Below, one piece after another: positions 262 to 11,328 of a stretch of 11,872 nucleotides of DNA. The translations under genes were made by a program, and so were the position numbers. The number at the start of each line of letters is the position of its first letter. Position 1 is the stretch's first letter. A model generated the notes under the pieces. The model worked only from the letters and a program-made list of their open reading frames with translations, searched no databases and was not told the origin of the DNA. Where the stretch lies: the UHGV virus genome UHGV-1566471; one strand, 5' to 3'. Origin of the DNA: a virus.

Positions 262-564
262 GTGCCTCCATTTCCTTTTTCTTCCTGTTCCTGCTGTTAT
301 TTTGATGAGTTGCTTGAACTACTTGGGAAGGCCGCTCAGAGTCGTACGGAAAACTTCCTTAACCGTAAGTTGTATGCAACCGTAGATGACAGGCCTGCGG
401 ATGATCCTGATGGGCTTGTGATATCTGATGATGTGAAGCTGGCGCTCCTGCTACTTGTCAGCCATTTCTACGAAAACCGCTCAACGGTTACAGACGTTGA
501 GAAAATGGAGTTGCCAATGAGCTTTAACTGGTTGGTTGCTCCTTATCGCCTTATACCACTATGA
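262..564 (+). CDS. Phage gp6-like head-tail connector protein, probably 5'-truncated or disrupted (recognisable part starts about nt 304)
   Basis: C-terminal 85 aa (DELLELLGKAAQ...LALLLLVSHFYENRSTV...LVAPYRLIPL) fit the gp6-like connector pattern. The first 14 codons (PPFPFSSCSCCYF) are read from the pyrimidine-rich upstream region of the minus-strand gene and lack the usual N-terminal motif. In-frame starts are only GTG 262 or TTG 310, neither with a convincing RBS. Stop overlaps the next start (ATGA at 561-564). Confidence 0.55.
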   Translation: MPPFPFSSCSCCYFDELLELLGKAAQSRTENFLNRKLYATVDDRPADDPDGLVISDDVKLALLLLVSHFYENRSTVTDVEKMELPMSFNWLVAPYRLIPL

Positions 565-971
565 AAATTCGTCAGGCGCAGACCAGCGCAACCTACATTC
601 TGCCTGACCCAGGCGAGCTGAATAAACGCGTCCTGATCCGCCAGCGGGTGGATATGCCCGCGGATAACTTTGGCGTGGAGCCTCAATACCCGGTTACGTT
701 CCGGACATGGGCGAAGGTTATCCAGACCAGTGCCACCACCTGGCAGGAAACCGCGCAGACCGGAGATGCCATCACCCATTACATCACCATTCGTTACCGC
801 CGGGGGATCACCGCTGATTATGAGGTGGTCTGCGGTGACAGTGTGTACCGGGTGAAACGTCAGCGCGATCTGAACGGGGCGCGGCGCTTTCTGCTGCTGG
901 AGTGTACGGAGCTGGGCGAATGTAGGCAGAGTCACGGAGGCAACAATGACGACTTCCTTTTTGCACGTTGA
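561..971 (+). CDS. Phage head closure / head-tail adaptor protein
   Basis: 136-aa ORF, ATG overlapping the upstream stop (ATGA), position directly after the gp6-like connector; translation consistent with head-tail joining family proteins. Confidence 0.75.
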   Translation: MKIRQAQTSATYILPDPGELNKRVLIRQRVDMPADNFGVEPQYPVTFRTWAKVIQTSATTWQETAQTGDAITHYITIRYRRGITADYEVVCGDSVYRVKRQRDLNGARRFLLLECTELGECRQSHGGNNDDFLFAR

Positions 972-1452
972 TTTTCAGCAGCCCGCGGAGATGCGCTTTA
1001 ACCGCGCCCGTGTCCGGCGGGCGTTTGTCACGATTGGTCAGCGTCATATGCGTGATGCCCGTCGGCTGGTGATGCGCCGTGCACGGTCGGCACCGGGTGA
1101 AAACCCCGGTTATCAGACCGGACGCCTGGCTCGTTCGATTGGTTACATGGTACCCAGAGCCAGTAAACATCGCCCTGGTTTTATGGCACGTATAGCCCCT
1201 AACCAGCGTAATGGAGAGGGAAACCGCCGTATCAACGGTGATTTTTATCCGGCTTTTTTGTTCTATGGCGTGAGGCGAGGGGCAAAGCGTCGTCGCAGCC
1301 ATCATCGTGGTGCATCCGGTGGCAGCGGCTGGCGACTGGCTCCACGTAATAACTTTATGGTGGAAACGCTTGAAAAGAACCGCAGCTGGACACGCTATTT
1401 TCTGGCGCGGGAATTGCGTAAATCACTGAAGCCGGAGCGACGACACAGATGA
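946..1452 (+). CDS. HK97 gp10-family phage protein (tail completion / neck)
   Basis: 168-aa basic protein; GGAGG 8 nt upstream of ATG 946; motif LARSIGYMV...ARIAPN...YPAFLFYG resembles the HK97 gp10 family; overlaps upstream gene by 26 nt. The long antisense ORF 808..1305 is R-rich and judged spurious. Confidence 0.75.
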   Translation: MTTSFLHVDFQQPAEMRFNRARVRRAFVTIGQRHMRDARRLVMRRARSAPGENPGYQTGRLARSIGYMVPRASKHRPGFMARIAPNQRNGEGNRRINGDFYPAFLFYGVRRGAKRRRSHHRGASGGSGWRLAPRNNFMVETLEKNRSWTRYFLARELRKSLKPERRHR

Positions 1453-2009
1453 AACTGACGCCTGTTATTGCTGCGCTGCGTGCCCGCTGCCCGTATTTTG
1501 AAAACCGGGTGGCAGGCGCGGCACAGTTCAAAAATCTGCCGGAGGTCGGAAAGCTGAGACTCCCGGCGGCGTATGTGGTACCGGGTGATGACTCTCCGGG
1601 AGAAAACAAAAGCCAGACCGACTACTGGCAGGAGCTGAAAGAGGGTTTCTCCGTGGTTGTCATACTGAGTAACGGGCGTGATGAGCGCGGTCAGTTTGCC
1701 TCGTATGATGTGGTGGACGATGTCCGGCAGATGCTCTTTAAGGCTCTGCTGGGCTGGAACCCGGAAGCGTGCGGTAACCCGATTACCTATGACGGCGGCA
1801 CGCTGCTGGATCTGAATCGTCATGAGCTGATTTATCAGTTCGATTTTTCGGTCATCAGCGAGCTGACCGAAGACGATACCCGCCAGCAGGATGACCTGAA
1901 CAGTCTGGATGAACTGCGAACGCTGGCGATTGATGTTGATTATCTCGATCCCGGTAACGGGCCTGACGGCGATATCGAACATCACACCGAAATAACCCTT
2001 CCTTCCTGA
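1449..2009 (+). CDS. Mu gp37-like (DUF1834-type) virion morphogenesis protein
   Basis: 186-aa acidic protein MKLTPVIAALRARCPYFENRVAGAAQFKNL...; ATGA start/stop overlap with upstream gene; sits immediately upstream of the DUF2635-sheath-tube block as in Mu-like tail modules. Confidence 0.7.
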   Translation: MKLTPVIAALRARCPYFENRVAGAAQFKNLPEVGKLRLPAAYVVPGDDSPGENKSQTDYWQELKEGFSVVVILSNGRDERGQFASYDVVDDVRQMLFKALLGWNPEACGNPITYDGGTLLDLNRHELIYQFDFSVISELTEDDTRQQDDLNSLDELRTLAIDVDYLDPGNGPDGDIEHHTEITLPS

Positions 2010-2017
2010 GGATCCTC

Positions 2018-2188
2018 ATGTTTGTGAAACCTGTTAAAGGGCGGTCAGTGCCTGACCCTGCCCGCGGCGACCTTTTGCCCGCCGAAGGGCGAAATGTTGA
2101 CGAGAACAACTACTGGCTGCGCCGTGAAGCAGCGGGTGATATCCGGCGCGTGAATAAAAAGGTGAATACCGATGACGATAAGCTTTAA
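2018..2188 (+). CDS. Small Mu gp38-like protein (DUF2635-type), 56 aa
   Basis: Not in the ORF track (below 60 aa). ATG 2018 preceded by GAGGA; translation MFVKPVKGRSVPDPARGDLLPAEGRNVDENNYWLRREAAGDIRRVNKKVNTDDDKL; overlaps the sheath start by 17 nt; conserved position just upstream of the sheath gene. Confidence 0.6.
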   Translation: MFVKPVKGRSVPDPARGDLLPAEGRNVDENNYWLRREAAGDIRRVNKKVNTDDDKL

Positions 2189-3668
2189 CACCATTCCGTC
2201 GAATACGCTGGTTCCGTTGTTTTATGCGGAAATGGATAACCAGGCGGCGAATACTGCACAGGACAGCGGAGCATCGTTGCTGATTGGTCACGCCAATAAC
2301 GGTGCAGAGATTGTTGCCAACAGTCTGGTGCTGATGCCGTCGGCAGACTATGCACGCCAGATTTGTGGTGCGGGAAGTCAGCTGGCGCGTATGGTCGAGG
2401 CTTATCGCCAGACCGACCCGTTTGGCGAGCTGTATGTGATTGCCGTTCCGGAAGCCGCAGGCGCGGCGGCAACGGTTACTCTGACGGTGACCGGGGCGGC
2501 AACCGAAACCGGCACGGTGAATGTGTATGTGGGACATACCCGCGTGCAGGCACCGGTGACCAACGGCGATAACGTCGCGACGATTGCCGGCAGTATCCAG
2601 GATGCCATCAATGCCGTTCCGGCCCTGCCGTTTACGGCCTCATCTTCGGCTGGCGTGGTCACACTGACCGCGCGTCATAAGGGACTTTGCGGGAATGAAA
2701 TTCCTGTCAGCCTCAATTACTACGGCTTTGGTGGGGGCGAAGTGCTGCCAGCGGGTGTACAGATTGCTGTGGCGACGGGTACCGCCGGAACGGGCGCTCC
2801 TGTTCTCACCGGTGCGGTGGCTGCAATGGCGGATGAGCCGTTTGATTATATCGGCCTGCCGTTCAACGACACGGCCTCCGTTAACACGCTGGTGACCGAG
2901 ATGAACGATACCAGCGGTCGCTGGAGCTATGCGCGTCAGCTGTATGGTCATGTGTATACGTCAAAGACCGGTACGCTGTCAGAACTGGTGACCGCAGGTG
3001 ACCAGTTTAACCAGCAGCACATTACCCTGGCGGGGTACGAAAAAGAAACCCAGACACCTGCCGACGAGCTGGCGGCAAGCCGTACCGCCCGCGCAGCGGT
3101 GTTTATCCGCAACGATCCGGCACGTCCCACGCAGACCGGTGAGCTGGTGGGTATGCTGCCTGCGCCGAAGGGGAAACGGTTCACGATGACCGAGCAGCAG
3201 ACCCTGCTGTCTCATGGCGTGGCAACGGCGTATGTCGAAAGCGGGGTACTGCGCATTCAGCGTGATGTCACCACGTACAGGAAAAATGCTTACGGGGTTG
3301 CGGATAACAGCTACCTCGACAGCGAGACGCTGCATACCAGCGCGTATGTGCTGCGCAAACTGAAATCCGTCATTACCAGTAAGTACGGGCGTCACAAGCT
3401 TGCCAGTGACGGTACCCGCTTTGGTCCCGGTCAGGCGATTGTCACCCCGGCGGTGATCAAAGGGGAACTGCTGGCAACCTACCGTCAGCTTGAGCGTGCG
3501 GGGATCGTGGAAAACTACGAACTGTTTAAGCAGTACCTGGTTGTGGAGCGTGATGCCAGCGATCCGAACCGCCTGAACACGCTGTTCCCGCCTGACTATG
3601 TTAACCAGCTGCGTGTCTTTGCCGTGGTTAACCAGTTCCGTCTTCAGTATTCAGAGGAGTCCGCATAA
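2172..3668 (+). CDS. Contractile tail sheath protein (Mu gpL-like)
   Basis: 498-aa ORF, N-terminus MTISFNTIPSNTLVPLFYAEMDN typical of Mu-like sheath proteins; followed by the tube gene with TAATG overlap. Confidence 0.9.
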   Translation: MTISFNTIPSNTLVPLFYAEMDNQAANTAQDSGASLLIGHANNGAEIVANSLVLMPSADYARQICGAGSQLARMVEAYRQTDPFGELYVIAVPEAAGAAATVTLTVTGAATETGTVNVYVGHTRVQAPVTNGDNVATIAGSIQDAINAVPALPFTASSSAGVVTLTARHKGLCGNEIPVSLNYYGFGGGEVLPAGVQIAVATGTAGTGAPVLTGAVAAMADEPFDYIGLPFNDTASVNTLVTEMNDTSGRWSYARQLYGHVYTSKTGTLSELVTAGDQFNQQHITLAGYEKETQTPADELAASRTARAAVFIRNDPARPTQTGELVGMLPAPKGKRFTMTEQQTLLSHGVATAYVESGVLRIQRDVTTYRKNAYGVADNSYLDSETLHTSAYVLRKLKSVITSKYGRHKLASDGTRFGPGQAIVTPAVIKGELLATYRQLERAGIVENYELFKQYLVVERDASDPNRLNTLFPPDYVNQLRVFAVVNQFRLQYSEESA

Positions 3669-4024
3669 TGGCCCGTATCGGGGGAACCTGTTATTTCAAA
3701 ATTGACGGTCAGCAGCTATCGCTGACCGGCGGCATTGAGGTGCCCATGAACAGGACGGTCAATGATGACATCATCGGCCTGGACGGTTCAGTGGACCGCA
3801 AGGAAACTCACCGTGCGCCTTATGTCAAAGGGACCTTCAAGGTGCCGAAGAATTTTCCGGTGAACAAAATCACCTCGTCTGATGAGATGACAATCACTGC
3901 CGAGCTGGCGAACGGTCAGGTCTATGTACTGTCGTCTGCCTGGCTGCACGGCGAAGCGAACCATAATGCCGAAGAAGGCACGGTCGATCTTGAGTTCCAC
4001 GGTGAAGAAGGGGATTACCAGTAA
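3668..4024 (+). CDS. Tail tube protein (Mu gpM-like)
   Basis: 118-aa ORF immediately after the sheath; GAGGAG upstream; TAATG overlap at both ends; size and position match tube proteins of contractile tails. Confidence 0.85.
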   Translation: MARIGGTCYFKIDGQQLSLTGGIEVPMNRTVNDDIIGLDGSVDRKETHRAPYVKGTFKVPKNFPVNKITSSDEMTITAELANGQVYVLSSAWLHGEANHNAEEGTVDLEFHGEEGDYQ

Positions 4025-4293
4025 TGAAAGAGCTTGAGTTAAAGAAACCGATTACTGCTCATGGCGAGACACTCTCCGTACTGGAGTTTGATGAACCCAC
4101 CGGGAAGGATGTCCGCGAGCTGGGGTATCCCTACCAGATGAATCAGGATGAGTCAGTCAGACTTCTGGCGCATGTGGTGTCGAAATACATTGTGCGGCTG
4201 GCGAAAGTGCCGCAAAGCTCTGTCGACCAGATGTCTCCGGCAGACCTGAATGCAGCGGCGTGGCTTGTGGCTGGTTTTTTCCTCCAGGCCTGA
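4024..4293 (+). CDS. Tail assembly chaperone, short (in-frame) product
   Basis: 89-aa ORF between tube and tape measure genes; its 3' end overlaps a second ORF in the -1 frame, the conserved two-ORF arrangement of tail chaperones. Confidence 0.8.
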   Translation: MKELELKKPITAHGETLSVLEFDEPTGKDVRELGYPYQMNQDESVRLLAHVVSKYIVRLAKVPQSSVDQMSPADLNAAAWLVAGFFLQA

Positions 4294-4442
4294 CGGCTGA
4301 ATACCTCACTGATCGCTTCTTTGACTGCGCCAGCTACTGGCGCATTAATCCTTTCGAATTGCTGAATATGCCGATCAGTGAAATTCCCTTACTGGTCAGT
4401 CAGGCAAACAGGATAGAGCAGGAGAAACGCACACATGGCTGA
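4024..4442 (+). CDS. Tail assembly chaperone, long product by programmed -1 ribosomal frameshift at T TTT TTC (4275-4281)
   Basis: Slippery heptamer T-TTT-TTC in X-XXY-YYZ register of the upstream frame (codons GGT TTT TTC); the -1 frame stays open from 4260 to the stop at 4440-4442, which overlaps the tape measure start at 4435. Frameshifting is predicted, not shown. Confidence 0.55.
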
Positions 4443-6270
4443 ATTTGAGCTTAAGGCGTTGATCACCGGTGTCGACAGGCTTTCTCCCGCGCTGTCGAAA
4501 ATGCAAAAGAAAATCCGGGGATTTAAACGCCAGGCGGAAGAAGCGTCACAGGGTGGGCTGGCGCTTGGTGGCGGACTGGCAGCGGGTCTGACGCTTTCCC
4601 TGAAATCTTATGCCGATCAGGAAAACGCCGCCACCGGGCTGAAAGTCGCCATGATGGATGCGAACGGCGAGGTTGGAAAGAGCTTTCAGGACATCAATAA
4701 ACTGGCTATTGGCCTGGGTAACCAGCTACCCGGTACAACGGCTGATTTCCAGAACATGATGCAGATGCTGGTGCGTCAGGGGATCCCGGCAGAAAACATT
4801 CTGGGTGGTGTGGGTAAAGCGACAGCTTATCTTGCGGTACAACTGAAAAAAACACCGGAAGCGGCTGCTGAGTTTGCTGCAAAGATGCAGGATGCTACCG
4901 GAACGGCGTCAGAAGACATGATGGGGCTGTTCGACACTATCCAGAAGGCGTTTTATCTGGGCGTTGACGATACCAACATGTTGTCCTTCTTCACTAAAAC
5001 CAGTTCTGTTCTGAAGATGGTGAACAAGGACGGTCTTCAGGCTGCACAGAGCCTTGCCCCCATCAGCGTCATGATGGATCAGATGGGGATGAACGGGGAG
5101 TCGGCAGGTAATGCCCTGCGAAAAGTTATCCAGTCCGGATTAAGCGTTAAGAAAATCAGGGACGTCAATAAAGTCATGGCCCGCCAGAAACTCGGGGTAC
5201 AGCTCGATTTTACTGACGGCAAAGGGAGTTTTGGCGGTCTTGATAACATGTTTAAACAACTGGCAAAGCTGCGAAAACTGACCGACGTTAAGCGAACAGG
5301 TGTACTTAAGGCAATATTTGGTGATGATGCCGAAACCCTTCAGGTGGTAAATGCTCTGATCGATAAAGGAAAGGATGGTTACGATCAGATCCAGCAGAAG
5401 ATGAATAAACAGGCCAGTCTGAATAAACGTGTTCAGGCCCAGCTTGGTACGCTGTCCAACCTGTGGGAGGCAATGACGGGGACCGCAACTAACGGCCTTG
5501 CGGCTATTGGCGGCGCATTTTCTGGTGACGCCAAAAATATCACGCAATGGCTGGGGGAGTTAGGGGAAAAATTCACGAAGTTTGCGGATGAAAATCCCCG
5601 GGTTATTCGCGGCGTCGTCGGGCTTGCTGCCGGTCTTGCGATTCTGAAACTGGGATTGATGGGCGTGGGCAGTGCCATCAGTATCGTCAGCAGGATCATG
5701 TCGATGACGCCGATTGGCATGATTGCGACGGCGATTGCCCTGGCTGCGGGATTAATTATCACTAACTGGGATGTTGTCGGACCTTATTTTAAGAAACTCT
5801 GGGAAACCATTAGTCCTTATTTTGAGGCTGGCTGGGAACTTCTGAAGAAGGTTTTTGCCTGGTCGCCGCTGGGGATGGTGATCAATAACTGGGGACCGGT
5901 TGTTAAGTGGTTTCAGGATATGTGGGATAAGCTGAAGCCGATTATTGAATGGTTTACCGACAGTTCCGGTGACACGGTCGATGCCATTAACTCGGCGCAG
6001 TGGGGCGCGGGTGCTTATGATGCTTATGGGACGGGATTCCCGGCGCGGGGATACACACCTTATCCGGCGATGGATCCGGCTCAGGCAAACAACGCCTCCG
6101 ATGCCACAGGCCCGAATCCCTTCATGATTAACAAAGCTTCTGCGCCAAAAGTTGATGGTGAGATCAAGGTCTCTTTTGTGAATTCGCCTCCGGGTATGCG
6201 GGTTATGGAAACGCGATCCAGCGGTTTTGATGTCAGCCATGATGTTGGCTATACGCGCTTTGGCAGGTAA
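4435..6270 (+). CDS. Tail tape measure protein
   Basis: 611-aa ORF directly after the chaperone pair; Gly/Ala-rich, helix-prone N-terminal part and a hydrophobic segment (VVGLAAGLAILKLGLMGVGSAISIV...IATAIALAAGLIITNW) typical of tape measure proteins. Confidence 0.9.
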   Translation: MAEFELKALITGVDRLSPALSKMQKKIRGFKRQAEEASQGGLALGGGLAAGLTLSLKSYADQENAATGLKVAMMDANGEVGKSFQDINKLAIGLGNQLPGTTADFQNMMQMLVRQGIPAENILGGVGKATAYLAVQLKKTPEAAAEFAAKMQDATGTASEDMMGLFDTIQKAFYLGVDDTNMLSFFTKTSSVLKMVNKDGLQAAQSLAPISVMMDQMGMNGESAGNALRKVIQSGLSVKKIRDVNKVMARQKLGVQLDFTDGKGSFGGLDNMFKQLAKLRKLTDVKRTGVLKAIFGDDAETLQVVNALIDKGKDGYDQIQQKMNKQASLNKRVQAQLGTLSNLWEAMTGTATNGLAAIGGAFSGDAKNITQWLGELGEKFTKFADENPRVIRGVVGLAAGLAILKLGLMGVGSAISIVSRIMSMTPIGMIATAIALAAGLIITNWDVVGPYFKKLWETISPYFEAGWELLKKVFAWSPLGMVINNWGPVVKWFQDMWDKLKPIIEWFTDSSGDTVDAINSAQWGAGAYDAYGTGFPARGYTPYPAMDPAQANNASDATGPNPFMINKASAPKVDGEIKVSFVNSPPGMRVMETRSSGFDVSHDVGYTRFGR

Positions 6271-6293
6271 TGAAAAATTAATCTGTTAATGAG

Positions 6294-6316
6294 TCCCACT
6301 CCGGTGGGATTTTTTA
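6294..6316 (+). terminator. Possible weak intrinsic terminator or attenuator between tape measure and DNA circularization genes
   Basis: Hairpin TCCCAC (6294-6299), loop TCCG, GTGGGA (6304-6309), followed by a run of six T (6310-6315). Stem is only 6 bp, so at most partial termination. Confidence 0.3.
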
Positions 6317-6330
6317 TGTACGGAGTTTAT

Positions 6331-7659
6331 ATGACGTGGAAAGACAGACTTCAGGACGCGTCATTTCGCGGTGTGCCGTTTAAGGTTGAAGAAGAAAGTG
6401 CGGGAACCGGTCGCCGTGTGGAAACGCACGAATACCCGAACCGCGACAAACCCTATACCGAAGACCTGGGGAAAATCACTTTCCGCCCGTCCATCACGGC
6501 TTATGTGGTGGGAGATGACTGCTTTGACCAGCGCGATCGCCTGATTGACGCGCTGAATAAACCCGGTCCTGGCACGCTTGTCCATCCGACTTACGGTGAG
6601 CTGAAAGCCTGTGTTGACGGGGAAGTTCGGGTCAGCACATCGAAGAGTGAAGGGCGTATTGTCCGCTTTGACCTGAAGTTTGTCGAAGCGGGAGAACTCT
6701 CTTACCCCACATCAGGTGCGGCGACGGCGCAGACGCTGATGTCATCCTGTTCTGCACTGGATGACTGCATCAGTGATAGCTTCAGTGGTTTCAGTATCGA
6801 TGGCGTGGCAGATTTTGTGCAGAACGACGTCGTCGGTAATGCCAGCACAATGCTTGGGTATGTTTCTGATGCGATGAAAGTGGTGGATTTTGCCGTATCG
6901 GATGCCGCCAGGCTGTTGCAGGGGGATATCTCGGTACTTCTGCCGCCGCCATCGTCAGGCAAAAATTTCGTTGAGCAGGTGCAGAAAATGTGGCGTACCG
7001 GGAAACGCCTTTATGGTAACGCCAGCGACCTGGTCACCATGATCAAAACGCTTTCCGGTGTCAGCCTCGGCAGCGATCTGCAACCGCGCGGCGTCTGGAA
7101 AACGGACAGTAAAACCACCGCCACGGCGACGCAGCAGCGTAACGTGGTTGCCAGCACCCTTCGTACGACCGCAATCAGCGAAGCGGCGTATGCCGTCACC
7201 CGATTGCCTGCGCCAACAACTTCCGCGGTGATGCAGAATGCCGCAGTGGGGCAGGCAACAACACCCGCGCAGAGCACCGGCTGGCCTTCTGTCACGCATC
7301 CGGCACTGAACAATGCACCGGCGGTGAAAAACACGGTTGACCTGCCAACGTGGGAAGAACTGACCGACATTCGCGACACACTGAATACGGCAATTGATAA
7401 GGAGTTGTCCCGTACAACCAGTGATGCGCTGTTTCTGGCGCTGCGCCGGGTGAAAGCAGATCTGAATGCGGATATCAACACGCGCCTTGAACAGTCTGCT
7501 CGGATCATTCAGCGCACGCCGGATGAGGTTTTACCCGCGCTGGTGCTGGCGGCGGCCTGGTTTGATAACGCGGCGCGTGACGCGGACATTATCCGGCGTA
7601 ATGCCATTACGCATCCCGGCTTTGTGCCGGTGATCCCTCTGAAGGTGCCAGTGCAATGA
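6331..7659 (+). CDS. DNA circularization protein (Mu gpN / gp43-like)
   Basis: N-terminus MTWKDRLQDASFRGVPFKVEEE matches the DNA circulation protein N-terminal motif. ATG 6331 preferred (GGAG 4 nt upstream); the ORF track start 6289 and ATG 6316 are in-frame alternatives. Stop overlaps the next start (ATGA 7656-7659). Confidence 0.85.
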   Translation: MTWKDRLQDASFRGVPFKVEEESAGTGRRVETHEYPNRDKPYTEDLGKITFRPSITAYVVGDDCFDQRDRLIDALNKPGPGTLVHPTYGELKACVDGEVRVSTSKSEGRIVRFDLKFVEAGELSYPTSGAATAQTLMSSCSALDDCISDSFSGFSIDGVADFVQNDVVGNASTMLGYVSDAMKVVDFAVSDAARLLQGDISVLLPPPSSGKNFVEQVQKMWRTGKRLYGNASDLVTMIKTLSGVSLGSDLQPRGVWKTDSKTTATATQQRNVVASTLRTTAISEAAYAVTRLPAPTTSAVMQNAAVGQATTPAQSTGWPSVTHPALNNAPAVKNTVDLPTWEELTDIRDTLNTAIDKELSRTTSDALFLALRRVKADLNADINTRLEQSARIIQRTPDEVLPALVLAAAWFDNAARDADIIRRNAITHPGFVPVIPLKVPVQ

Positions 7660-8735
7660 ACGACAATGTCACGCTACGGGTAAATGGCCGGGAGTGGAAT
7701 GGCTGGACATCGGTGCGCATCGGTGCCGGTATTGAACGGCTGGCGCGGGATTTCAGTGTGGAGATCACTCGCCAGTGGCCGGGAGATGAGGGTATCACCA
7801 CGCTTCAGCCGCGCATTAAAAACGGTTCAAAAGTGGAAGTGCTGATTGGTGATGAGCTGGTGATCACCGGCTGGGTGGAGGCGACTCCCGTTCGTTACGA
7901 TGCCCGTTCGGTCAGCACCGGTATTGCCGGACGTAGTCTGACGGCTGACCTGATTGACTGTGCAGCCGAACCGACACAGTTTAACGGACGCTCGCTGGTG
8001 CAGATTGCGCAGGCGCTTGCTGCGCCTTTCGGCATTGAGGTGGTGAACAACGGTGCACCGTCGGATGTTATTCCTGATGTCCAGCCTGATCACGGTGAAA
8101 CGGTGATCGAGGTGATCAACAAAATACTCGGTCAGCAGCAGGCGCTGGCTTACGACGACCCGCACGGCAGGCTGGTGATTGGCGGTATTGGCTCAACGCG
8201 GGCACATACCGCGCTGGTACTTGGGGAAAACATCCTTTCCTGTGATACGGAGAAGAGTGTTCGGGAGCGTTTTTCAGTTTACCAGGTGGCGGGGCAGCGT
8301 GCCGGAAACGACGATGATTTCGGTGAGGCCACCACCACCGCGCTGCGGGCCCGCACAGAGGACGCATTTATTGCCCGTTACCGTCCGATGTATATCAGGC
8401 AGACAGGGCAGGCCACGGGGGCAGGTTGTATTGCGCGTGCTGACTTTGAAGCCCGACAACGGGCGGCGCGGACGGATGAAACCACCTATGTGGTGCAGGG
8501 CTGGCGACAGGGTAACGGTACGCTGTGGCAGCCCAACCAGCGGGTGATTGTCTTCGATCCGGTCTGTGGTTTCGACAATACCGAACTGCTTGTCTCGGAA
8601 GTCACGTTTACTCAGGACCAGAACGGCACCCTGACGGAAATCCGTGTCGGCCCACCTGATGCTTATCTTCCTGAACCCGAAGCCCCCGGCGCGCGGAAAA
8701 AGAAAAAAGCCAGAGTACAGGAGGACCCGTTCTGA
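7656..8735 (+). CDS. Baseplate hub / tail protein (Mu gpP / gp44-like)
   Basis: 359-aa ORF, N-terminus MNDNVTLRVNGREWNGWTSVRIG typical of Mu P-like proteins; lysine-rich C-terminus; TGATG overlap with next gene. Confidence 0.85.
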   Translation: MNDNVTLRVNGREWNGWTSVRIGAGIERLARDFSVEITRQWPGDEGITTLQPRIKNGSKVEVLIGDELVITGWVEATPVRYDARSVSTGIAGRSLTADLIDCAAEPTQFNGRSLVQIAQALAAPFGIEVVNNGAPSDVIPDVQPDHGETVIEVINKILGQQQALAYDDPHGRLVIGGIGSTRAHTALVLGENILSCDTEKSVRERFSVYQVAGQRAGNDDDFGEATTTALRARTEDAFIARYRPMYIRQTGQATGAGCIARADFEARQRAARTDETTYVVQGWRQGNGTLWQPNQRVIVFDPVCGFDNTELLVSEVTFTQDQNGTLTEIRVGPPDAYLPEPEAPGARKKKKARVQEDPF

Positions 8736-9283
8736 TGAGGACGATTGAAGCCATGCAGCGACAACTCCTCGGCCTGATTGGGCGGGCCGTGGTGAAAAGC
8801 ATCAGTGCCGCCACGAAATGTCAGACCGTGGATGTGTCCCTGATTGCCGGTGAACCCAAAGCCGGGGTTGAACATCTTGAACCCTACGGTTTTACCGCAA
8901 GGGCAAACAGCGGTGCGGAAGCGGTGGTGTTGTTTCCGGATGGCGACCGTTCTCATGCAGTGGTTGTTACGGTGTCGGACCGGCGCTACCGCCTGAAAGG
9001 GCTGCAGACGGGTGAGGTGGCTGTCTATGACGATCAGGGGCAGTCTGTGACGCTGACCCGGGAGGGGATCGTGGTGGACGGTGCAGGTAAAACGATCACG
9101 TTTCGCAATGCGCCCAGAGCACGTTTTGAAATGGACCTGGAAGTGACAGGACAGGTGAAAGACCTGTGCGACTCCGGCGGCACCACCATGTCAGCGATGC
9201 GGCTTGCCTATAACGGGCATCGTCACAGAGAGAACGGTCAGGGCAGTAACACCGACAAACCTGATAAAGCGATGGAGGCATGA
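8735..9283 (+). CDS. Baseplate assembly protein V / central spike (Mu gp45-like)
   Basis: 182-aa ORF in the position of Mu gp45; translation consistent with gpV-like spike proteins. Confidence 0.8.
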   Translation: MRTIEAMQRQLLGLIGRAVVKSISAATKCQTVDVSLIAGEPKAGVEHLEPYGFTARANSGAEAVVLFPDGDRSHAVVVTVSDRRYRLKGLQTGEVAVYDDQGQSVTLTREGIVVDGAGKTITFRNAPRARFEMDLEVTGQVKDLCDSGGTTMSAMRLAYNGHRHRENGQGSNTDKPDKAMEA

Positions 9284-9708
9284 TGGAACTGTGGCTGACG
9301 GTGAACGGTAAACGCACCTGCGCCAGCGCACAGCTGGATCCGCTGACCCGCGCCGTGGTGATTTCCCTGTTTACCTGGCGGCGGGCGGAGCCTGATGACA
9401 ACGCCGACGTCCCGATGGGATGGTGGGGGGATACCTGGCCTGCGGTACAGAATGACCGTTACGGCTCCCGACTGTGGCTGCTTCAGCGCAGCAAACTGAC
9501 CAATCAGCTGGTGCAGACGGTAAGGGGGTATATCCGCGAATGCCTGCAATGGATGATTGATGACGGCGTGGTGTCCCGTATTGATCTGGATATCCGCCGC
9601 ACCGGGATTAATGAACTGGGTAACAGTATCACTCTCTGGCGTCGTGACGGACCGGTAATGATTTCTTTTGATGATCTGTGGAGTGCGATAACGCATGGCG
9701 GACAGTGA
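9280..9708 (+). CDS. Phage GP46-family baseplate protein (Mu gp46-like)
   Basis: 142-aa ORF, ATGA overlap with upstream gene; conserved position between the gpV-like and J-like genes. Confidence 0.8.
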   Translation: MMELWLTVNGKRTCASAQLDPLTRAVVISLFTWRRAEPDDNADVPMGWWGDTWPAVQNDRYGSRLWLLQRSKLTNQLVQTVRGYIRECLQWMIDDGVVSRIDLDIRRTGINELGNSITLWRRDGPVMISFDDLWSAITHGGQ

Positions 9709-10753
9709 ATTTCAGCGCCCGACGCTGGCAGAAAATATCAGTATGCTCCGTAACGATTTATTCGCCAGGCTGGACGTCAGCGACACGCTCCGGCGCATGG
9801 ATGAAGACGTGCGGGCAAAGGTGTATGCGGCGGCGCTGCATACGGTTTACGGTTACATCGATTATCTGGCAATGAACATGCTGCCTGACCTGTGCGATGA
9901 GTCCTGGCTGGCGCGACATGCTGCGATGAAACGGTGTCCGCGCAAGGGGGCCACGGCTGCCAGCGGGTATATGCGCTGGGAAGGTGTCAGCGATGGCCTG
10001 AAGGTGACCGCCGGGAGTGTTATTCAGCGCGATGACCTGGTTCAGTACACGGCAACTGCCGATGCAACCAGCACCGGTGGTGTCCTGAGCGTGCCGATCG
10101 CCTGCTCAAGTGCAGGCGCGGTCGGTAACGCTGACGACGGTACGTCATTAATCCTGGTCACGCCGGTTAATGGTCTGCCGTCTTCCGGCGAGGCAGATAC
10201 CCTGACAGGTGGATTTGATATTGAAGAGCTGGAAACGTGGCGCGCCCGCGTCATTGAGCGGTATTACTGGACGCCTCAGGGCGGGGCTGACGGGGACTAT
10301 GTCGTCTGGGCTAAAGAAGTGCCCGGCATTACCCGCGCATGGACATACCGACACTGGATGGGAACGGGGACTGTCGGTGTGATGATAGCCAGCAGTGACC
10401 TGATTAATCCCATTCCGGAAGAATCAACGGAAACGGCAGCAAGACAACATATCGGGCCACTGGCCCCGGTGGCAGGCTCTGATTTGTATGTATTCAGGCC
10501 GGTGGCACATACGGTGGATTTTCATATCCGCGTGACGCCGGACACACCAGAAATACGGGCTGCCATTACCGCGGAGTTGCGTTCGTTCCTGCTGCGTGAT
10601 GGTTATCCGCAGGGAGAACTGAAGGTATCGCGTATCAGTGAAGCGATTTCCGGTGCGAACGGGGAATACAGCCATCAGTTGCTTGCACCGGCAGACAATA
10701 TCTCCATTGCAAAAAATGAACTGGCGGTACTGGGGACGATTTCATGGACGTGA
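9695..10753 (+). CDS. Baseplate J-like wedge protein (Mu gp47-like)
   Basis: 352-aa ORF; size and order (gp46 then J-like then gp48-like then fiber) match Mu-like baseplates and the e14 jayE-ymfQ-stfP arrangement. Confidence 0.85.
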
Positions 10754-11328
10754 CAAACGATGATTACATCCGTCTGTTGTCGGCACTGTTGCCCCCCGGT
10801 CCGGCGTGGTCAGCCAGCGATCCGGCGATTGCCGGTGCGGCACCGTCATTAACCCGCGTTCATCAGCGTGCGGATGCCCTGATGCGGGAGCTGGATCCGC
10901 GCACCACCACTGAACTGATAAACCGCTGGGAGCGTCTGTGCGGTCTGCCGGATGAATGTATTCCGGCGGGAACGCAGACCCTTCGCCAGCGTCAGCAACG
11001 GCTGGATGCGAAGGTTAACCTGGCGGGCGGCATCAACGAGAATTTTTATCTTGCACAGCTTGCTGCCCTGGGCAGACCAGACGCCACCATCACGCGATAC
11101 GACAAAAGCACGTTCACCTGCTCATCGGTCTGTACTGACGCGGTGAATGCGCCGGAATGGCGGTATTACTGGCAGGTCAACATGCCAGCCGCCACAAACA
11201 CCACCTGGATGACATGTGGCGATCCCTGTGATTCCGCGCTGCGTATCTGGGGCGACACCGTTGTCGAATGTGTGCTTAACAAACTCTGCCCGTCGCATAC
11301 CAACGTAATTTTTAAATATCCGGAGTAA
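10744..11328 (+). CDS. Mu gp48-like / YmfQ-like tail protein (DUF2313-type)
   Basis: 194-aa ORF overlapping the J-like gene by 10 nt; Cys-containing C-terminus; sits immediately upstream of the tail fiber gene as in e14 and Mu-like prophages. Confidence 0.8.

Follow-up and report, generated by a model that had tools for sequence, protein, structure and literature searches.

Tail assembly chaperones of the G/GT type are reportedly made with the help of a programmed frameshift. In phage lambda, the chaperone gene lies just upstream of the tape measure gene, and gpG and gpGT arise from a -1 slip near its 3' end on the slippery heptamer G GGA AAG. The ratio of the short to the long lambda product is needed for tail assembly, both products are absent from virions, and the shared domain sits on the tape measure protein while the extension recruits the tube protein (PMC5009743). 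A second described pair is gpE/gpE+E' of phage P2, encoded in the FETUD tail operon, for which a -1 frameshift was shown experimentally (Christie et al. 2002, as cited in PMC3091744); the P2 record annotates a -1 translational frameshift, with E of 91 aa and E+E' of 142 aa. For phage Mu, a -2 frameshift has been reported (PMC5009743; PMC2628397).

The locus described here belongs to virus genome UHGV-1566471, from which a stretch of 11,872 nucleotides was analysed as a whole (hereafter, the window). The window is the contractile-tail module of an SfV-like temperate myovirus (prophage) of E. coli/Shigella, with the order sheath, tube, chaperone, tape measure and then Mu-type baseplate. Genes for a head-tail connector, head completion and a tail terminator (262..2009; PF05135, PF05521, PF23840) and a DUF2635 gene (2018..2188; PF10948) are followed on the + strand by those for a 498-aa tail sheath (2172..3668; PF04984, PF17482, PF17481, phrog_165), which matches SfV orf11, and a 118-aa tail tube (3668..4024; PF10618 with E 3e-33, phrog_185). 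The chaperone gene (4024..4293, + strand; phrog_166) comes next, then that for the 611-aa tape measure protein (4435..6270, + strand; PF10145, phrog_28, phrog_17727), which starts at the base equivalent to the start of SfV orf14, and, by Pfam, those for a Mu-type DNA circulation protein and the gp44-gp48 baseplate proteins (6289..11328). The region 3668-4700 is 99.2% identical to orf12-14 of Shigella phage SfV and 98.5-99.0% identical to SfI, SfII and two E. coli phages. The tail module was detected in 1089 of 5426 complete E. coli genomes, about one in five, and is also carried by the Shigella serotype-converting phages SfV, SfI and SfII. The genes between 3600 and 4700 are tightly coupled; no promoter-like sites were found there on either strand, and no terminator-like sites on the + strand.

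Read by ordinary decoding, the chaperone gene gives the short form of the protein ('G'/gpE-like; 89 aa, 9.9 kDa). Its start codon, ATG 4024, shares bases with the TAA that closes the tube gene (TAATG), and direct translation ends with ...WLVAGFFLQA* at the TGA of 4291-4293. The short ORF scores 58.8 bits (E 5.4e-16) against PF10109 (Phage_TAC_7, 'tail assembly chaperone proteins E, or 41 or 14'), a family whose membership is defined by a score above the curated gathering score, here 25; the match covers residues 4-86 and profile positions 2-78 of 79. With the tube gene (PF10618) on one side and the tape measure gene (PF10145) on the other, the chaperone gene occupies the position of a G/GT-type gene.

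Near the 3' end of this gene, the + strand carries T TTT TTC at 4275..4281 (ggT TTT TTC in the 0-frame register), and it falls into the X XXY YYZ register, as the 0-frame codons are GGT (4273), TTT (4276) and TTC (4279). No stop interrupts the -1 frame between 4152 and the TGA at 4440-4442; the +1 frame closes at 4298. The preliminary description of this DNA had proposed tandem tRNA-Phe slippage on a heptamer in the correct register, and a short chaperone ORF accompanied by a -1 ORF that reaches the tape measure gene; direct reading of the codons bears out both. It had also placed the end of the extended frame exactly at the start of the tape measure gene, and here the geometry had to be corrected to an overlap of 8 nt (ATGGCTGA; ATG at 4435, stop at 4440-4442), as in P2, where the long frame likewise overlaps the ATG of gene T by 8 nt. 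The space between the chaperone stop and the tape measure ATG (4294-4434) measures 141 nt.

From the comparisons given below, it is very probable that a -1 frameshift fusion is made at 4275-4281 of the tail chaperone gene. Base 4281 would be read twice, and the -1 frame would add the 'T'/E'-like part of the protein (4281..4442, + strand), 53 codons (PPGLTAEYLTDRFFDCASYWRINPFELLNMPISEIPLLVSQANRIEQEKRTHG) followed by TGA. The predicted fusion has 139 aa and 15.8 kDa, in which 86 N-terminal residues shared with the short form are joined to the 53-residue C-terminal part; the junction reads ...AGFF-PPGLTAEY... (in full, ...AGFF-PPGLTAEYLTDRFFDCASYWRINPFELLNMPISEIPLLVSQANRIEQEKRTHG). The predicted tryptic peptide across the junction is VPQSSVDQMSPADLNAAAWLVAGFFPPGLTAEYLTDR, and the 0-frame C-terminal peptide of the short form is VPQSSVDQMSPADLNAAAWLVAGFFLQA.

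The site most closely resembles that of P2. In both phages the short product belongs to PF10109 (E 5e-16 here, 1.4e-12 for P2) and its gene lies between those for tube and tape measure. At the aligned residue, each has a heptamer of the T6 type in an identical register, GGT TTT TTC here and GGT TTT TTG in P2, and in each the first T of the heptamer is the third base of a GGT glycine codon. The product sizes correspond (89/139 aa here, 91/142 aa in P2), and there is no downstream structure in either (for P2, PMC3091744). The two sites differ in the last base of the heptamer, C here and G in P2, so that the A-site tRNA is that for Phe here and for Leu in P2, and the tail module here is of the Mu/SfV type, not the P2 type. 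Pairwise identity is low (BLASTP E 0.56), and homology is seen at the profile level only. When 18 predicted fusions were aligned with P2 E+E' by hhalign, the match extended over 120 columns with a probability of 86% and an E-value of 4.9e-6; at the junction VAGFF|PP aligned with VVGFL|VA, and the extensions aligned too. Judged by these profiles, the predicted slip site is a homologue of the P2 E/E+E' site, with the difference that the P2 frameshift has been shown by experiment, whereas that of the present phage is predicted from its sequence.

The likeness to lambda and Mu, to which the preliminary description had pointed, is more divided. The lambda-type logic holds, with a chaperone gene just upstream of the tape measure gene and a -1 slip predicted near its 3' end. 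The lambda proteins fall into a different Pfam family, the relationship being compared at the Pfam level only, and belong to a non-contractile tail. The parallel with Mu did not hold for the frameshift, for which the closest counterpart is P2 E/E+E'. Mu gp41 is covered by the family name of PF10109 ('E, or 41 or 14'), and the neighbouring families are also those of Mu for sheath, tube, DNA circulation protein and gp44-48 baseplate. However, gp41 has 144 aa and no in-frame X XXY YYZ heptamer, and the long ORF downstream of it, which continues for 43 codons beyond the stop, uses the +1/-2 frame. Given this, and the -2 shift reported for Mu, the mechanism proposed here follows P2 and not Mu.

Within a single genome, the heptamer is only suggestive, because random synonymous codons for the peptide G-F-F would be expected to give T TTT TTY in about 27% of cases by chance. 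The 15 genes of the window (3662 codons) contain seven in-frame X XXY YYZ heptamers, among which only that at 4275-4281 lies at a gene end, three codons before the stop, with a long -1 extension that reaches the next gene. It is conservation among homologues that lifts the site above chance. A scan with one genome per species gave 20 loci with 40-100% amino acid identity, from Edwardsiella, Buttiauxella, Citrobacter, Atlantibacter, Scandinavium, Kluyvera, Erwinia, Pantoea, Kosakonia and further Enterobacteriaceae, with the betaproteobacterium Derxia gummosa as the farthest source. All 20 have the T6 heptamer at the equivalent codon, as T TTT TTC or, in two loci, T TTT TTT. The stop of the short ORF varies in position (5 to 16 codons after the heptamer start), and the -1 frame runs 41-49 codons past the chaperone stop in every locus, to end a few bases from an ATG or GTG at the expected tape measure start.

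A codon alignment of 19 distinct alleles showed GGT for G84 and TTT for F85 in 19/19, and TTC for F86 in 18/19 with TTT in the remaining one. Every one of the 19 other invariant residues that are neither Met nor Trp is synonymously variable in the same alleles, with 2-5 codons each. As the codons of G84, F85 and F86 stay fixed while those of other invariant residues vary synonymously, the alignment indicates selection on the nucleotides, not on the protein.

The arrangement extends to other described phages. With the fusion as a tblastn query, two frame-split pieces were found in 23 phage records, and the split-frame arrangement is shared with the group of SfV orf13, ST64B sb15 and phiP27 L46. 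The in-frame heptamer is T TTT TTT in ST64B, SfIV and phiP27, T TTT TTC in BgVeeders33 and Pseudomonas phage DVM-2008, and T TTT TTG in Pseudomonas phage PG1 and Bordetella phage PBb002; in all seven, as in P2, the start of the tape measure gene marks the end of the -1 frame. The ST64B/SfIV/phiP27 subgroup differs from the present locus in that its short ORF does not stop until at least 20 codons beyond the slip site. The T6 heptamer was kept in 8/8 further phages in total. The conservation of the heptamer thus stood up in the 20 loci, the 19 alleles and the eight further phages, and because a T6-type heptamer with this geometry recurs across the family, the site does not merit its first portrayal as unusually clean.

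Among near-identical prophage loci (IMG/VR, n = 80), the canonical site is kept in 74. Four lack the first T of the heptamer and with it the in-register heptamer (GGT to GGG, in one case also TTC to TTT). In the other two, which represent distinct alleles (L004 and L005), a 1-nt insertion of an extra G fuses both frames. The slip site is therefore not absolutely fixed among near-identical prophages, and the six deviating loci are plausibly defective or decaying prophages. 'Full-length' fused proteins in the protein database (P0001-P0006) were also considered as natural fusions and rejected, as they are singletons with scattered indels that point to assembly errors.

Conservation of the run would look the same if selection acted on a string of Ts as such and not on a ribosomal heptamer. 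A product of the same kind could then come from transcriptional slippage, in which RNA polymerase adds a U on the T6 run, so that a minority of mRNAs carry fused frames and are translated in the ordinary way. The slip site is indeed a homopolymer run, lengthened to T7 in loci L098 and L099 and in ST64B, SfIV and phiP27, and the two alleles with an inserted base demonstrate that one additional nucleotide does fuse the frames. UUUUUUU is noted as prone to transcriptional slippage (PMC4066793). Yet the T6 run is shorter than those on which bacterial RNA polymerase slips appreciably, which are of about 8-9 or more. In addition, the run keeps to the X XXY YYZ register throughout, and the base 3' of it varies between C, T and G, which is what an A-site codon would lead one to expect. 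For the homologous site of P2, both the record and the literature give a translational -1 frameshift (PMC3091744). Because the run is short and the homologous event in P2 is described as translational, we regard transcriptional slippage as very unlikely here.

The -1 frame beyond the chaperone stop bears the mark of a coding sequence. Over the stretch that begins at the chaperone stop and closes with the last full sense codons, dN/dS comes to 0.12 for the -1 frame, against 1.37 for the 0 frame and 1.21 for the +1 frame. The contrast holds both in the part between the chaperone stop and an internal ATG (4296..4367; 0.10, 1.75 and 1.15, respectively) and in the part from that ATG to the end (4368..4436; 0.15, 1.04 and 1.23). 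The motif FDCAxYWRINPxELL...QANRI is kept among the homologues, and the extension matches phrog_32181 (E 4e-40), which PHROG labels as 'unknown function'.

Such a conserved frame could also be a gene of its own, with the second ORF initiated independently at GTG 4260, TTG 4359 or ATG 4368. There is an in-frame GTG at 4260, the record of phage vB_EcoM-689R6 has 4260..4442 as a CDS ('hypothetical protein'), and phrog_32181 is a PHROG family of stand-alone ORFs. However, the GTG that opens the mechanically called -1 ORF (4260..4262, + strand; ORF 4260..4442) owes its first G to the third base of the preceding codon and its TG to the invariant Trp80; it arises as a by-product of that Trp codon and is not a real start codon. 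Among 18 distinct homologous loci, 11 have no start codon upstream of the heptamer, and three of those 11 have no ATG, GTG or TTG anywhere in the -1 ORF. No Shine-Dalgarno sequence precedes GTG 4260 or the internal ATG 4368. Moreover, the part upstream of the internal ATG, which could not be translated from it, is the most constrained (dN/dS 0.10, FDCAxYWRINP). An independent start at 4260 had been named beforehand as the alternative that would speak against a frameshift; with its GTG not conserved and no Shine-Dalgarno sequence before it, two separate genes are more improbable still than transcriptional slippage. That the heptamer is an accident beside a non-coding spacer, with the 89-aa protein as the sole product and 4294-4434 as an intergenic stretch, has a negligible probability, and the comparative data already contradict it. 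RefSeq/PGAP and the SfV record do annotate this interval as empty and GFF codons do give the heptamer at the chance rate noted above, but the 'spacer' is under strong frame-specific purifying selection, encodes a peptide conserved across genera, and adjoins a heptamer that is invariant at synonymous sites.

The comparative tests thus support the main reading of the locus, a chaperone gene and a -1 ORF joined at the heptamer by an extension that runs to the tape measure gene. In the proposed mechanism, most ribosomes would stop at 4291-4293, having made the short chaperone of 89 aa. A smaller fraction, with a P-site tRNA-Phe on TTT and an A-site tRNA-Phe on TTC, would slip back by one base on T TTT TTC, after which both tRNAs would re-pair with TTT (UUU). 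Decoding would then continue in the -1 frame from CCT (4281) to the TGA at 4440-4442 and give the 139-aa fusion. If lambda G/GT and P2 E/E+E' serve as the model, the domain common to both products would coat the tape measure protein and the extension would recruit the tube protein, the frequency of slipping would set the fixed short:long ratio needed in tail assembly, and neither chaperone product would remain in the virion.

The extension itself resembles P2 E' only remotely, in a profile alignment with the shared pattern D-x-A-x-x-[FY]-[WH]-x-x-P-x-E-L. While P2 E+E' carries both PF10109 and PF06528 (Phage_P2_GpE, the P2 E' domain) and scores 76 bits on the latter, neither the 53-aa extension nor the fusion matched PF06528 at E<0.1; because it is below the gathering score, the extension is not assigned to that family. 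No NCBIfam model matched the fusion, the extension or P2 E+E'. A sequence-profile search of solved structures returned no relevant relative, the best match being an unrelated HNH nuclease (E 0.012).

A canonical stimulated -1 frameshift site has either a stable conserved RNA structure 5-9 nt downstream or a Shine-Dalgarno-like sequence 6-17 nt upstream. No conserved stimulatory hairpin or pseudoknot was detected at a spacing of 5-9 nt, either by folding of 4282-4361, by alifold of 16 homologues or by comparison of 21 loci with shuffled sequences. The 50 nt after the heptamer fold with -6.5 kcal/mol, no better than shuffles (z +1.1). The corresponding values in the homologues lie mostly between -0.8 and +1.8, with L098 and L103 as exceptions, and a strong hairpin right after the site was seen only in the two most distant lineages of the 21 folded loci. 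The alifold consensus showed no structure near the site and no covariation, and the upstream sequence GGCTTGTGGCTGG, inspected by eye in the alignment, is neither Shine-Dalgarno-like nor conserved. An Rfam scan of the whole window matched no family. A perfect 8-bp hairpin, TGCGCCAG-CTA-CTGGCGCA, is present at 4326..4344 on the + strand, within the T coding region and 44 nt after the heptamer. It was rejected as a stimulator, being too distant, coincident with the conserved DCASYWR codons and free of covariation, and probably lies outside the frameshift signal.

The heptamer class H_HH.U_UU.Y is among the most efficient in E. coli (PMC4066793). In an E. coli reporter, frameshifting on U UUU UUC was 0.12% without a stimulator and rose to 0.89% when the IS911 stimulator was present and to 7.6% with the IS3 pseudoknot; the corresponding values for U UUU UUG, the P2 version, were 0.118%, 0.247% and 0.765% (PMC4066793 supplement). 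The P2 frameshift is reported to occur at two to three times the lambda level of roughly one long product in 30 (PMC5009743). Tentatively, and as an unlikely case, the PF10109 chaperones of P2, SfV-like phages and their relatives may shift at useful levels on a bare T6 heptamer without RNA structure. If the gap between the level reported for P2 and that in the reporter (about 0.12%) is real, an unrecognised stimulator would have to act, for which the conserved nascent peptide ...[VA]-G-F-[FL] and the invariant GGU E-site codon are candidates; were this true, the locus would be a clean natural example for identifying such a stimulator.

Public annotation of this phage group lacks the frameshift. 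The RefSeq records of SfV, SfI, SfII, SfIV, ST64B and phiP27 contain the short ORF only, annotated as orf13 in SfV, with the extension unannotated, and in the best-matching E. coli genome PGAP likewise calls the short ORF only ('phage tail assembly protein'). A frameshift annotation was absent from every SfV-group record examined and from the one RefSeq E. coli annotation examined. In the literature on SfV or ST64B and frameshifting we found no statement on the slip site; earlier cataloguing of the SfV group is possible. As far as could be verified, the locus adds a new and unannotated case to a well-known kind, and neither its mechanism nor its geometry is out of the ordinary. The main value of the finding is in annotation hygiene, and it alters no concept in recoding or tail assembly. 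Recognition of the frameshift would add the correct 139-aa product and give the orphan family phrog_32181 a function, and the 60-aa hypothetical protein called in one phage record would be spurious. For the family as a whole, the T6 frameshift site would be an ancient shared feature of gpE/PF10109 chaperones across P2-type and SfV/Mu-type tails.

Among the 80 near-identical IMG/VR prophage loci (L004-L083), two alleles, L004 and L005, carried an extra G (GCTGGGTTTTTTCC) at about positions 1744-1760, corresponding to window 4270-4283. The insertion joins the tail assembly chaperone and its -1 frame extension into a single frame, so the 139-aa fusion is predicted to be produced by ordinary decoding. 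Because the two loci differ from each other at further positions, the extra G looks, from these sequences, like an inherited allele and not a random sequencing error. If lambda is a guide, a phage making the fusion only should be expected to have a tail defect. In another four of the 80 loci GGT had become GGG (window 4273-4281), which leaves the heptamer without its initial T (G TTT TTC), and in one of the four TTC was replaced by TTT as well. These four prophages may be in decay, or they may be variants of lower efficiency that depend on the U UUC tetramer.

The region 3' of the slip site (4282-4361) was predicted to fold with an energy of -20.3 kcal/mol (z -2.3). It contains a perfect 8-bp hairpin, TGCGCCAG-CTA-CTGGCGCA (4326-4344), which lies within the extension coding region 44 nt 3' of the slip site and overlaps the conserved DCASYWR codons; no covariation was detected in this hairpin. 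The enterobacterial loci had no strong hairpin directly after the heptamer. Strong hairpins that begin 1-2 nt 3' of the heptamer were found in the most distant homologues, that is, two uncultured proteobacterial MAGs (L098/L099, 1450-1475; -21 kcal/mol, z -2.9) and Derxia gummosa (L103, 1450-1490; -22 kcal/mol, z -1.9), and from these the use of a stimulator may be lineage-specific.

One more T6 heptamer in frame, T TTT TTG, was located at window 1254-1260, inside an ORF (946..1452) that lies between the genes for head completion and the tail terminator and encodes a 168-aa product with no Pfam match. It is probably there by chance, given that slippage would lead into a -1 frame of just 29 open codons and shorten the protein. 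At the gene junctions (3668, 4024, 7656, 8735, 9280 and 9695), nearly all tail genes of the window share 1-14 nt with their neighbours, ATGA and TAATG being examples, and this arrangement in the sequence indicates likely translational coupling along the tail operon.

The module was found in 1089 of 5426 complete E. coli genomes. The 141-nt stretch at window 4294-4434 is left blank in the RefSeq record of phage SfV and likewise has no PGAP annotation on the best-matching E. coli genome, and the stand-alone extension ORF is listed in PHROGs as phrog_32181, "unknown function".

Phage Mu differs in its recoding signal. Mu gp41 (L106, 2950-3115) lacks any X XXY YYZ heptamer in frame, and its extension of 43 codons occupies the +1/-2 frame, which fits the published -2 frameshift. 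Homologous tape measure and baseplate modules are thus preceded by two distinct recoding solutions.
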